From the NCBI GenBank assembly GCA_964016885.1, contig OZ024751.1, positions 21,080,001 through 21,144,000 of the forward strand: a DNA stretch of 64,000 nucleotides, given 5' to 3'. Shown piece after piece: positions 48,504 through 61,052 of the stretch (the stretch's first letter is position 1; every line of letters starts with the position of its first letter). A program made the translations under genes and the position numbers. The notes under the pieces are model-generated. The model saw only the letters and a list, made by a program, of their open reading frames with translations, did not search any database and was not told the DNA's origin. Source of the stretch: Eledone cirrhosa. Lineage: Eukaryota.

Positions 48504-48611
48504 ATATATGTATATATATAAGCAAAGTGATATTTAATTTGTTGGTAATTCAACAAATATCTATATTTATAAAACAATATTAAATAAATGGAAAACTATA
48601 TTTATAAAACC

Positions 48612-48688
48612 ATATTTATTTCATTATATATATTTCGGGGATATCATATTAACAATATGCTATGCCTTCATCAGACAAAATACAATAT
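48612..48688 (-). ncRNA. Minimal type I hammerhead ribozyme (copy)
   Basis: Reverse complement of 56491-56567 near the left end of the insertion. Confidence 0.8.
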
Positions 48689-49045
48689 AAACAGTTTTAT
48701 AGATAAATATATTCGACATACCGTAATAAACATCAACTTCATTTGAAGAGGTTCACTCTAGCAGTGAAAATACAGAGAGAAAGAAAGAGAGAGAGAAAAG
48801 AGGGAAATAAGAAAGAAAGAAAGACGAAACGAAGAAAAGGAAGAAAAAGAAGAAAAAGAAGAAATGCATGGGACAAAATAGAGAGATGGAAAAATAGATA
48901 AAGCGAAGAGCTTCATGTAAAGAGACCGAAAGAGATATATATATATATATAGAGAGAGGAAATAGAGATAGATACATATATAAATATAGATATAGAAAAA
49001 TTAGGTAGTGGGAGGTCATTTTGAGTAAGTGTATCAATGATGCAT

Positions 49046-49080
<35 letters not shown>

Positions 49081-50193
49081 GCTCAAGTATTAATGTAAGG
49101 GAGATATAGAGAGATATAGAGAGATATAGAGAGAGAAAAATTTAAAAATAGCCAGACATATTCGAGGCGTAGAAAACCCTATGTTTTAATGTATTAGTAT
49201 TTATAAAACTTACACTATATTGTAAATATCAGTATTCCTGAATGAAACAAGTATTCACAATGCGTGAAAATTCATTATCTTATGTTTAGTTTTTTAAAAA
49301 ATTCATATGTCTATGTGAATCCAACTGATTCACTCCGCAAATTCAAAGTTACCGGAAAACATTCTCAATGTGGTATAAACATTTGAGCGTATTATTATTC
49401 TTGCGATTACTCTACAAGATTATCTATCAAGCAGAAATAGAGAGCAGATTTCAATATACTAATCGAAAATATATATTATATTATAAGCAGAGATAACAAT
49501 AATAATGATAATAAGTAAAAATATATAAAAATATAAAAATATAGAATAGAAAACTAAAAAAGAATATTACGAAAGAATATTACATAATAAAAATATTGCA
49601 TATTAAAAATACTATGTTTTAAAATTATTACGTATTAAAACTTTACATATAAAAATATTAAAAATAAAAATAAAATAAAATAAAAAAAAATAAAAAATAA
49701 AAAATAAAAATATAAAAATATTATAGAATACTACAATACTAAAAGAATAAAAATAAAAATAAAAATAAAAATAAAAATAAAAATAAAAATAAAAATAAAA
49801 ATAAAAAATAAACCACAAAGAACAACCCTTCAAGGTTAATTGACAATATATTGCCAAGTTCACTACAAGACAAAGCCAAAAATTATCTATCAAATCACAT
49901 CTAGCAAGGAATATCGCAAAAAAAAAAAAGGTTATGATGTCCAATAATGTCTACATATGTTCCTATATTTAATATATAAGTTTATCAAGTGTAAGGTTAA
50001 TTCATAAAATTTGGAGCATCGGCTTTTAGGGTAGCTTAATTTTTCATGAGGAATGTTTAGATAAAAATAAAAATAAAAAATAAAAATAAAAATAAATACA
50101 ATAAAATAAACAGTAAAAAGAGGGAATCAAAGATTTAGGAATCAAAAGATTTATCGGCTAGTTCTCATATAAATATAAATCAAACTAAATATA

Positions 50194-52407
50194 CTACATT
50201 TTAAATTTAAATTTATATTTAAACGTTGAGTTTAATCTATGTTTGCAACAACTGAATAAATTTGTCCGTAGGTTAAGGGAATTTTTAGATTTTAGTATAA
50301 AGAATATCTCCTCTGCGCAGAGGTCACATGTCTCAGAGGATGAATTAAAAGGAATCCCTCTTGAGACTATATTCCAAGCCGTCGAATATCTAACGTTATC
50401 TAGCTTAAGTTGCCAGAGTACACCTGATAGTGCCGTTGAAGATTTTTTATTTGGATCTGTGAAAGAATTCTTGTGGTTATTATAGCGAAGTTTAAATTCC
50501 GTCGATGTGGAACCGACGTAGTTAAAAGAATTAGAGTCAGTATTAACATTACAATTGTATACTATATTTTTAACTAAGCAGTTGTTATTTAACGGACATT
50601 TAGATCTATCTCTACAGTTGCATTTGTTAACTTGTATATTATTTATGCTATTATCAGTAGTTTTTAAGTTCCTATTATTTATTCTATTAATATTTTGTGC
50701 TAAATTTTTGGTGGATGAATAGGTTAATTTAATTGTATGCCTATTGAAGATTGAGTGGTACCTATGTGTTCTAGGGAAGCGATTATCAAGAGCTTTGAAA
50801 AATAATTTAGCGATGTGGGTTTTAATGTTTAGTGAGAAAGGGGGGGCAAACCAAATTATGTTCCTAGTTCTATTTCTTTTTTGTCCTTTGGAATTATTGT
50901 AATGCTTTCTATTATAGTTGTTAATGTTGTTGCCATAATTAAAAAAGTTGTTACTTTGTTTAGTTTGTTTATCATTATCTATGTACACAATCTTATCAGC
51001 ATACCCTGCCCTAGCTAGTGCATCATTATAGTATTGGGCCTTTTCGTCAAAACTCTTTCTATTCGACGAGATCCTAGAGATACGCTTTTGGACTGAGTTT
51101 ACTATAGTGTTTTTGACAGATCTGGGGTGGTTAGAGTTAAAGTTGACATAGTTTAAGTTTTCATTCAACTTGTGAAAAGGATAGTGGAGACATGTGTTGA
51201 GATTTAATGTTATATCTAGGAAATTGACTATTCTATGGTTGTTCTCGATTTCTATTTTAAGGTTAAAGTAATTAAAAAATTTTGTAATTTGTTTACATTT
51301 TCTATTTAGTTCAGGGTTATTATTATTAATGAGTAAAAGCATGTCATCCCTATATAAACCTCCGGTAGTACCAGGTATTTTCCTATGTAGCGAATTGATT
51401 AAAAATAAGCCCACAAGGTCAGTTACTTGAGCTGAGTCGGAAGATCCCATAGTTATGTCAAAATTGCTATCTCTATCTGCTCTGGTCCATAATTTGTCAT
51501 CAAATTCTATCAAAGTTTTCCTAGCCGATAATATAATATGCATTTCTTTGCTAGTTAGGTCCGTATGTTTGAATGCGTAATTTAGTGCCTTATTTAGTAG
51601 ACTAGGGGTAATAGAAGAATAATAGTTAGCTATATCAAGTTGAATAAACCTATTATTATTGTCATATTTAATTTGCCTAAACCACTCAACAACCTCTCCG
51701 GTTCCCTTCCACAAGCTCAGGTTAGATACATAATCCAAGTTCTTAATTTGCAGTATCACCCTGTCAAGAATGTTTTTGCTTAATTTGCCCAGGTCCGATT
51801 TTGAAGGTGCGATTAATCTAACTGGCAGGTCAATCTCAAAATTCCTCTTGTGGTCCTTCATATTGATCTTCGGTTTCCTGGGCACAAAAGGTTGTGTTCT
51901 GTTCTCAATTTCCAACTCATGCATTATACAAGATGCTTCAACATTCATTTTCACAAGTTCGGTCTTATCTGCTACCTTGTATTTTTTCCTCAGCTCTTTC
52001 AGTATGAGGCCATTATACATGTCTTTCTGCACTCCATAGAGGTTGTTGGTCTTGTCAGATTTCACCAAGATCTTCTCAGTTTTCTCTAAGCTCTCAATGT
52101 TATCCTTAATGCCTTTCAGATATTCCTGGCCTTTAAAGTTTCTCTTGAATTTGACCCCTTGTATGATAGAAATTATATCGTTTTCAAAGTCAGATAAAAG
52201 TTTGTTAGGGGGTGGATTTCTTTTAGATTTGAAAACTTTGTTTAAGTCCGAGATATTTTCGTCTGCATTAAATTTATCAAAGTGGAATGCACGCCACCTG
52301 ATTCTCCTTATAAAAGAGTCAGATTTATCTATTAGTTGTTTTACAAAGTCTTTGTTTCTAGGTAGAGGTATGTCTTTTAGAGAGGAAGTAATCTTAAAGA
52401 ATTCCAT
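50194..52407 (-). CDS. Penelope-like retroelement polyprotein, second intact copy (737 aa)
   Basis: Same protein as 56742-58955 apart from two visible substitutions (HKLN vs HKSN; RKSF vs RKIF). Confidence 0.95.
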   Translation of the reverse strand: MEFFKITSSLKDIPLPRNKDFVKQLIDKSDSFIRRIRWRAFHFDKFNADENISDLNKVFKSKRNPPPNKLLSDFENDIISIIQGVKFKRNFKGQEYLKGIKDNIESLEKTEKILVKSDKTNNLYGVQKDMYNGLILKELRKKYKVADKTELVKMNVEASCIMHELEIENRTQPFVPRKPKINMKDHKRNFEIDLPVRLIAPSKSDLGKLSKNILDRVILQIKNLDYVSNLSLWKGTGEVVEWFRQIKYDNNNRFIQLDIANYYSSITPSLLNKALNYAFKHTDLTSKEMHIILSARKTLIEFDDKLWTRADRDSNFDITMGSSDSAQVTDLVGLFLINSLHRKIPGTTGGLYRDDMLLLINNNNPELNRKCKQITKFFNYFNLKIEIENNHRIVNFLDITLNLNTCLHYPFHKLNENLNYVNFNSNHPRSVKNTIVNSVQKRISRISSNRKSFDEKAQYYNDALARAGYADKIVYIDNDKQTKQSNNFFNYGNNINNYNRKHYNNSKGQKRNRTRNIIWFAPPFSLNIKTHIAKLFFKALDNRFPRTHRYHSIFNRHTIKLTYSSTKNLAQNINRINNRNLKTTDNSINNIQVNKCNCRDRSKCPLNNNCLVKNIVYNCNVNTDSNSFNYVGSTSTEFKLRYNNHKNSFTDPNKKSSTALSGVLWQLKLDNVRYSTAWNIVSRGIPFNSSSETCDLCAEEIFFILKSKNSLNLRTNLFSCCKHRLNSTFKYKFKFKM

Positions 52408-60068: not shown

Positions 60069-60103
<35 letters not shown>

Positions 60104-60460
60104 ATGCATCATTGATACACTTACTCAAAATGACCTCCCACTACCTAATTTTTCTATATCTATATTTATATATGTATCTATCTCTATTTCCTCTCTCTAT
60201 ATATATATATATATCTCTTTCGGTCTCTTTACATGAAGCTCTTCGCTTTATCTATTTTTCCATCTCTCTATTTTGTCCCATGCATTTCTTCTTTTTCTTC
60301 TTTTTCTTCCTTTTCTTCGTTTCGTCTTTCTTTCTTTCTTATTTCCCTCTTTTCTCTCTCTCTTTCTTTCTCTCTGTATTTTCACTGCTAGAGTGAACCT
60401 CTTCAAATGAAGTTGATGTTTATTACGGTATGTCGAATATATTTATCTATAAAACTGTTT

Positions 60461-60537
60461 ATATTGTATTTTGTCTGATGAAGGCATAGCATATTGTTAA
60501 TATGATATCCCCGAAATATATATAATGAAATAAATAT
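60461..60537 (+). ncRNA. Minimal type I hammerhead ribozyme (copy)
   Basis: Same sequence as 56491-56567, one period downstream. Confidence 0.8.
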
Positions 60538-60664
60538 GGTTTTATAAATATAGTTTTCCATTTATTTAATATTGTAAATATACTCCAAGTATTTGTCGAG
60601 TGCTTTTATATCAGTTATAAATATTTACTAGTTGTAACCCAACAATTTTAAATATAACTTTACA

Positions 60665-61052
60665 TATATTTATAAAACCATATTTATTCTTTTCAAATCC
60701 CGCCGAGGTTAACTTTGCCTTTCATTCTTGCGGGGTCGATAAAATAAAGTACCAGTAATGTACAGAGTAATTGGTGGCCTTGTGCCTAAAAATAGAAACA
60801 ATTATATATATTTCAAGGGTACCAACACTTTGATACGCTATCATCAGATAAGATACAAAGTTTGTTTTATAAATATTGACATATCCAGGAACGAGATCTT
60901 GACGGTTCAAGTTTTTCTTTTTTTCTTTATTGTTTTGTCATTTAAAAGTTTCTTCTTTCCTTTAGAGTTTGTTCACACATCACAATCTGTATATATATAT
61001 ATATATGAAATAAATATGGTTTTATAAATATAGTTTCCATTTGTTTAATATC

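Follow-up and report, generated by a model that had tools for sequence, protein, structure and literature searches.

The 64,000-nucleotide stretch of Eledone cirrhosa DNA analysed here (contig OZ024751.1, positions 21,080,001 to 21,144,000; the window) carries a 12-kb insertion of a Penelope-like element (PLE) built of two head-to-head arms, each longer than one element unit. Protein and hammerhead motifs assign the element to the Hydra clade of PLEs. The insertion is bracketed by a 14-bp direct repeat. In the reading that we prefer, and hold to be rather probable, it is a young copy that arose in one event, both 3' ends of a staggered cut priming reverse transcription. Positions are those of the window and the coordinates of features are collected in Table 1.

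Organization of the insertion

Self-comparison of the window yields a period of 3970 bp and reproduces the arms, coordinates, small number of substitutions and two intact open reading frames (ORFs) given in a preliminary description of this DNA. The 14-mer reported there at both ends was also recovered. The structure of the insertion is genuine. Both outer ends are 3' ends of the element, located 89 nt apart in the unit and at recurrent family termini. The left arm terminates at the short terminus (unit position 60575; outer edge 48574-48576, owing to two shared bases) and the right arm at the long terminus that includes a tail (edge 60664-60665). The arms thus have fixed 3' ends and differing 5' truncation points, for which 'circularly permuted', the term used in the preliminary description, is loose wording. 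The inversion is asymmetric, with unit positions 59234 and 57859 meeting at the central junction (53889), where both arms would read on into C-AAA, a possible short microhomology.

The left and right arms are 99.87% identical over 5315 bp. The four segments that they comprise, whose four-copy overlap is 1342 bp, differ by four substitutions (3.3e-4 per copied base) and two indels in total. Each variant is private to one segment and none is common to the two upstream segments, a weak test that is taken up below. The internal unit junctions are seamless and identical, lack a duplication scar and contain about 45 nt that are present at neither outer end. The insertion, nearly free of mutations, is young and probably the product of a single event. 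The two open ORFs differ at two residues (414 and 452), and neither column is invariant among the 54 aligned proteins described in the next section. Recency and PLE identity, both proposed in the preliminary description, are supported; its label 'potentially active' is a prediction.

The segment 49916-60575 consists of 5.3-kb near-perfect inverted arms flanking a 1.4-kb spacer. Read-through transcription of these arms would give a long double-stranded RNA, and recombination between them could flip the central segment.

Encoded protein and clade assignment

Pfam and PDB sequence searches with the 737-residue protein gave no match. A protein database search identified 146 relatives among 7998 scored candidates, the best at 40% identity, and the best species-named matches are from Argonauta hians. 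Together with a resemblance of the flanking SINE-like repeat, they suggest that the host is probably an octopod cephalopod. Fifty-three near-full-length relatives, taken from at least 120 listed, were aligned with the window protein to give an alignment of 54 members. The structure model derived from it has a pLDDT of 89, and its top five PDB matches in Foldseek are all telomerase reverse transcriptases (TERT; best 3du5, E 1.6e-9), while the 54-member profile gave three PDB matches only (E 0.24-0.62). D258 and YRDD352 are invariant or nearly so in the alignment. As judged from the model, the reverse transcriptase (RT) is telomerase-related, like that of PLEs with an endonuclease (EN+ PLEs).

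The same ORF codes for a carboxyl-terminal GIY-YIG endonuclease (EN). The GIY-YIG profile PF01541 matches 4 of the 54 members (E 0.0011-0.01), the window protein itself being unmatched. Residues Y617, Y630, G632, R641, E700 and N712 are invariant in 54/54 and the order of strands and helices in the modelled carboxyl-terminal domain is that of GIY-YIG.

Hydra-clade proteins, in the accessible parts of PMC8557442 (comparisons with the literature refer throughout to such parts of the papers cited), have a carboxyl-terminal EN, RWK, DKT instead of DKG, a CxCx5C linker, CxxC and CxH motifs surrounding the conserved E and N, and no CCHH; their amino-terminal GxKF/Y motif is not conserved. The window protein features RWR37 (the last position is R in 18 and K in 30 of the 54 proteins), DKT118 and no DKG, together with CxCx5C (C596-C598-C604), CxxC (C694-C697) and CxH (C721-H723). 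Its EN core has one His (645), so that CCHH is absent, as judged from the residue list. GVKF is found at 84-87, although G is not the usual residue there among the 54 relatives (N in 28). By these motifs the element is assigned to the Hydra clade; reference sequences were compared by eye. A Naiad/Chlamys identity is ruled out by the carboxyl-terminal EN and the hammerhead motif, that clade having an amino-terminal GIY-YIG and no canonical hammerhead. The absence of DKG and of CCHH in the EN rules out Penelope/Poseidon, Neptune and Nematis.

Hammerhead motif

Each of the four units carries a type I hammerhead motif, recognized by manual parsing, about 1.5 kb downstream of the stop codon. Stem I has 8/8 pairs in the young and in the old copy, and in the old relative at 32234 the sequence of stem II is changed with its pairing pattern kept. 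The layout agrees with the Hydra rows of File S2 (PMC8557442), with an 8-nt first core and a C/T-GAA second core; a canonical hammerhead motif near the 3' end is a Hydra-clade character. The predicted cut is 51 nt from the end of the left arm and 140 nt from that of the right arm.

Contigs of run X1, one of the public runs described below, have a joint from 60524 to 60467 with two letters between (depth 629), 60524 being the predicted hammerhead cut site. This joint could stem from tandem or fold-back hammerhead units elsewhere in the X1 genome.

Element termini, tail and family remnants

The one-sided 89-nt tail is the 'tail' signature of PLEs. Two old copies (32035 and 48520) end at the tail terminus, and three others (near 32425, 61055 and 14395) end no more than a few nt away from the short one, in all cases into (TA)n. 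Public contigs from 4 of 14 listed runs were placed on 56700-60990, their depth not being a copy number; none of the 14 is an RNA run, which has no bearing on expression. Five contigs of run X1 and one of run X4 run from 60661 through four letters into (TA)n. The 43 loose X1 ends behind 60556 are short (median 9) and were excluded as support for the short terminus. The old remnant 32035-32425 is a miniature of the 12-kb layout, with two hammerhead motifs on opposite strands, one of which has a shortened stem II.

Contigs cover most of the unit in three coded organisms (22-28 of 30 bins). In organisms B and C, pieces of the unit 56700-60669 are found at 90-99% identity, so the family is common to several species. 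The contig letters differ from the window at many places and the runs are therefore probably not its source. Over the end region 60444-60990, which corresponds to the pseudo-long terminal repeat (pLTR), contig depth in X1 and X4 is far above that of the ORF, with copies of a short interspersed element (SINE) adding to it at 60690-60802. This suggests that short end remnants far outnumber coding copies in X1 and X4.

Target of the insertion

The flanks of the insertion belong to an older relative of the element, which the preliminary description overlooked along with the hammerhead, the tail and the clade. The SINE-like piece within this relative is a later insertion, since contigs of X1 and X6 join 60688-60690 to 60801-60805 and skip it. 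Rejoined with one 14-mer and without 60690-60802, the flanks are identical to the 32-kb remnant at 148/162 aligned bases and to the young element at 134/165 bases (~81%). The match to a family remnant places the young element inside an older fold-back relative. Compared with the copy at 32035, the left part of the target lacks 76 bp directly beside the 14-mer; this deletion follows from the left 15 bases, which match the 32-kb remnant 15/15 at a downstream motif and 9/15 at the colinear upstream look-alike.

Counting both strands, the window contains 10 copies of the 14-mer: two at the flanks, four inside the element (48597, 52567 and, reverse-complemented, 56569 and 60539) and four in older relatives (32154 and, reverse-complemented, 14357, 32387 and 61019). 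Being family sequence, it is not a chance match, and its flanking position alone is no proof of a target duplication. Element and target share it within a 25-bp identical stretch. The target duplication of the preliminary description is thus less self-evident than it appeared, but it is still the best and simplest reading of the repeat and is likely. Insertion primed by homology at the shared 14-mer was rejected: in the RNA, 23 and 112 nt separate the start sites from the 14-mer, and the junction matches amount to 1-2 nt.

Insertion into (TA)n is a Hydra-clade trait (PMC8557442), and other copies of this family end in (TA)n. The insertion studied here, in contrast, occupies a TATAT inside the end region of the old relative and not a (TA)n tract. 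The old remnants hold 53 of the 4835 TATAT/ATATA starts outside the insertion (1.1%). Landing in one of them suggests a preference for own-family targets, from a single event noticed post hoc.

Proposed mechanism and nature of the template

Since both outer ends are 3' ends of the element, extension most likely took place on both strands of the target. The preliminary description had already put forward a single event with priming on opposite strands, and this is supported by the location of these ends at family termini and by flanks that rejoin with one 14-mer. In the proposed pathway the endonuclease would nick both strands 14 nt apart at the TATAT-containing site, leaving 3' overhangs. Of the two 3' ends, that of the top strand would start cDNA synthesis at 60575 (the short start site) and that of the bottom strand at 60664 (the tail start site), each matching the template over only 1-2 nt. 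Both cDNAs would pass the hammerhead site, the ORF, the next unit junction and the second hammerhead site, to halt after 5.3 kb (unit position 59234, just before a T12 run) and 6.8 kb (57859), respectively. Finally, a short A-rich junction would link the two cDNA ends, with fill-in to complete the insertion.

The internal junctions are seamless, hence the tandems were templated. A cut linear monomer cannot yield the arms, as it would provide only 51 or 140 nt of template between the predicted cut and the start sites downstream of it, and the template was therefore an uncut multimer, a circle, or was jumped. We give about an even chance to a circular template of 3970 nt, which hammerhead cleavage followed by ligation would have produced. 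Long read-through multimers are rather unlikely, and end-to-start template jumping is more doubtful. The circle is favoured because truncation alone cannot maintain a length above one unit, and because terminal pLTRs are incomplete start sites, if the downstream RNA that Poseidon needs is also needed here. Between the circular and the concatemeric RNA of the preliminary description the locus cannot decide, and neither idea is new.

Several observations weigh against the preferred reading or its circular template. The Rfam scan of 60380-60980 gave no hammerhead match and three chance matches; that of 46000-64000 gave 168 matches, of which the 150 listed are hairpins or (TA)n, all under gathering scores. 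The fold of the monomer is no better than that of shuffles (z -0.14) and the minimum-energy dimer is not in the hammerhead form. Variants that are all private are as compatible with a very young tandem donor as with a circle. The Poseidon protein in vitro uses mainly uncleaved RNA, and RNA ends coinciding with the cut site were not found (PMC11167929). The displayed contig rows of the four runs on 56700-60990, which leave out 26 joints and 675 loose ends, hold no contig for the central junction, the left junction or the empty allele; the empty site and reads across the junction had been proposed as checks in the preliminary description. Moreover, the 14-mer is the same in element and target, so that its left copy may have arisen as an abortive start of cDNA synthesis accompanied by a deletion in the target. 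The 76-bp deletion lies directly beside the 14-mer and may have preceded or followed the insertion.

The strongest competitor, in our view possible but unlikely, keeps the single event and the two-ended priming but has no circle: the templates would be long linear read-through RNAs, from a tandem donor with uncleaved hammerheads, or monomers between which the enzyme jumped. Besides using uncleaved RNA in vitro, Poseidon is proposed by its authors to have a multi-copy mRNA (PMC11167929), and PLE hammerheads cleave poorly in vitro (PMC4209133). Two RNAs of 1.34 and 1.71 units would be enough. However, 5' truncation only shortens tandems, which implies that their length has to be regenerated, and the donor must exceed two units if RNA downstream of the start is required, as it is for Poseidon (first 172 nt of the ORF; PMC11167929). 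The lack of variants shared by the two upstream segments also speaks, as a weak test, against a tandem donor.

A single linear RNA is more demanding. In L1 twin priming both strands of one target prime on two adjacent parts of one RNA, and an internal inversion with a target duplication results. In contrast, both arms here start in the 3' end region of the element and their content overlaps by 5.3 kb. Twin priming of the L1 type on one linear RNA would require 3.4-3.7 units, skipping 1254 or 2539 nt, and was rejected for the length required.

It is improbable that the 14-mer is no target duplication, its left copy representing either a short cDNA on the element's own RNA whose synthesis was aborted or a remainder from recombination with the old relative, and ~90 bp of the target having been lost on insertion. 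The 25-bp stretch shared by element and target and the deletion adjoining the 14-mer are what such an origin would leave. It demands, however, that the left piece start within 1 base of the position at which the right flank resumes, which a staggered cut provides automatically, and the right junction, where the element end is followed by TATAT, resembles the usual family end in (TA)n.

An assembly artefact (a long read that folded back or was chimeric, or repeat copies joined wrongly) is very improbable. Complex PLE insertions are known to trouble assemblies (PMC8557442) and the displayed rows offer no independent contig across the central junction, but the inversion is asymmetric (59234/57859), the arms end at two different family termini and carry private substitutions, the flanks rejoin into one older element, and the small remnant 32035-32425 has the same layout. 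Still less credible is a stepwise origin, in which at least two insertions hit the end region of the family one after another: a relative's end region is indeed where the element landed, yet the internal junctions are seamless and identical, without duplication scar and with ~45 nt absent from the outer ends, and a single pair of 14-mers brackets the whole.

Comparison with known elements

PLEs typically show partial tandems (pLTRs), an inverted copy with 5' truncation and a tail on one side (PMC8557442; PMC8969392), and the insertion has all three traits of EN+ PLEs. Its architecture is thus known; it represents no new system and will not surprise a PLE specialist. New here are a Hydra family with a long unit (3.97 kb) and a long tail, two open ORFs in one young insertion, and a nested target. 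The literature searched contains no report devoted to a Hydra-clade insertion with two arms above one unit, most subscription papers and figures being outside the search. The origin of tandem and inverted PLE insertions is called unresolved in PMC8557442.

The element shares with the Hydra clade (Craig et al. 2021, PMC8557442) the single ORF for RT and carboxyl-terminal GIY-YIG, the same motifs, the hammerhead near the 3' end and family ends in (TA)n. Hydra-clade Penelope-13_HM is listed with a 5'-truncated inverted copy (PMC8557442). The unit of 3970 bp, with ~1.75 kb non-coding, differs from the 1080-3045 bp of the 27 Hydra consensus sequences listed there; a length below 3 kb is a general tendency of the clade and not a criterion, and the excess here is non-coding. 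Hydra-1_Obim of Octopus bimaculoides (2507 bp, 'no pLTR'; PMC8557442) is a clearly different family from a by-eye comparison of the amino-terminal half.

PMC3846280 describes inverted insertions flanked by duplications of 8-10 bp, a Penelope inserted into another one, and inverted halves that are permuted. Like the Penelope of Drosophila and Pen2a, Pen3 and Pen4 of Adineta vaga in that work, the insertion combines a partial tandem with an inverted 5'-truncated head-to-head copy, a one-sided tail, a short target duplication and landing in another Penelope. Unlike these canonical insertions (PMC3846280), it has an inverted arm that forms a partial tandem of its own and includes a full ORF, its tail has 89 nt instead of 30-40 and its duplication 14 bp instead of 8-10, and there is no palindrome at the inversion junction.

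The only full-length PLE protein studied in vitro as of PMC11167929 is a Poseidon. For it, both strands were reported to be nicked and extended, the tail to be bounded by two start sites, and the element's own pLTR to be cut (Frangieh 2024, PMC11167929). The insertion resembles this Poseidon, from Anolis carolinensis, in the two ends bounding a tail just downstream of the hammerhead, the AT-rich target, next to no primer homology and extension of both strands. Poseidon belongs to another clade and starts inside the ORF (PMC11167929), whereas the start sites here are 48 and 137 nt upstream of the ATG.

A circular template was proposed for PLE copies above one unit (Cervera and de la Pena 2014, PMC4209133), and PLE hammerheads were linked to circular retrozymes (PMC7761336; bioRxiv 10.64898/2026.07.22.740005). 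Non-LTR retrozymes (same sources) similarly have seamless tandem units with one type I hammerhead each and a proposed circular intermediate. They are small, non-coding, circular RNAs, unlike the autonomous 3.97-kb element, for which a circle is only proposed.

Table 1. Coordinates of the insertion, its target and related features in the window (aa, amino acids; UTR, untranslated region)
Feature	Position	Strand	Remarks
Left arm	48576..53888	-	5313 bp, 1.34 units; 3' UTR piece, ORF, UTR
Right arm	53890..60664	+	6775 bp, 1.71 units; truncated ORF, UTR, ORF, UTR
Head-to-head junction	53889	.	one extra A; unit positions 59234 (antisense) / 57859 (sense)
Intact ORF, left arm	50194..52407	-	open, 737 aa, RT + GIY-YIG; residue 452 Ser (private), Ile in other two copies
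Intact ORF, right arm	56742..58955	+	open, 737 aa, RT + GIY-YIG; residue 414 Ser (private), Leu in other two copies
5'-truncated ORF piece	53890..54986	+	aa 373-737
Hammerhead motif, terminal unit, right arm	60467..60532	+	type I, Hydra-type core, self-complementary stem III; predicted cut after 60524
Hammerhead motif, upstream unit, right arm	56497..56562	+	
Hammerhead motif, upstream unit, left arm	52587..52652	-	
Hammerhead motif, terminal unit, left arm	48617..48682	-	
Tail	60576..60664	+	89 nt, right end only; ends 48 nt upstream of would-be next ATG
14-bp direct repeat, left copy	48562..48575	+	likely target duplication
14-bp direct repeat, right copy	60665..60678	+	direct repeat of exactly 14 bp
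Older relative (target), left part	48520..48575	-	tail end adjoining (TA)n
Older relative (target), right part	60665..61055	.	antisense hammerhead region, then inverted short end (~60995-61055) adjoining (TA)n
SINE-like repeat piece in older relative	60690..60802	.	many 78-93% copies in window
Old fold-back remnant, same family	32035..32425	.	tail arm + inverted no-tail arm in (TA)n
3'-end fragment of old subfamily	14339-14403		short, ends in (TA)n

Other repeats of the window

The segment 41215-45713 is composed of 7.3 tandem copies of a 615-bp non-coding unit that are 99.7-99.8% identical and differ by private variants only. It has (TA)n on both sides and its ends are out of phase. At 18600-18721 there is a relative (79%) of the left end, likewise next to (TA)n. 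The array has no hammerhead core and no similarity to the PLE unit, and an Rfam scan of 41215-42100 gave no match. It is possibly a young element that is non-autonomous and whose tandem copies arose by many rounds of copying on a circular template, and it may test rolling reverse transcription better than the 12-kb insertion.

Near-perfect palindromes are located at 62790-62928, 61085-61180 and 45835-45975. Those at 61085 and 62790 have sequence in common and are probably a small family of inverted-repeat elements. A 90-bp minisatellite with copies ~96% identical occupies 22531-23669.

Implications for PLE biology

The most far-reaching version of the proposed mechanism, which we consider doubtful, is that an active Hydra-clade element rolls twice round a hammerhead-ligated 3.97-kb RNA circle, starting from the two ends of a single 14-nt staggered cut, and prefers the hammerhead-tail region of its own family as target. 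If this is true, the locus would preserve, undamaged, a natural trace of rolling-circle reverse transcription carried out by an autonomous retroelement related to telomerase, and would offer ready material with which to prove it. The locus alone does not settle whether the template was a circle or a multimer. In this Hydra-clade copy, which is young and has open ORFs and a hammerhead motif, both ends are mapped and the target can be reconstructed. The copy thereby leads to exact predictions on nick positions, the two start sites and the circle junction, and these make the question testable in a second clade.

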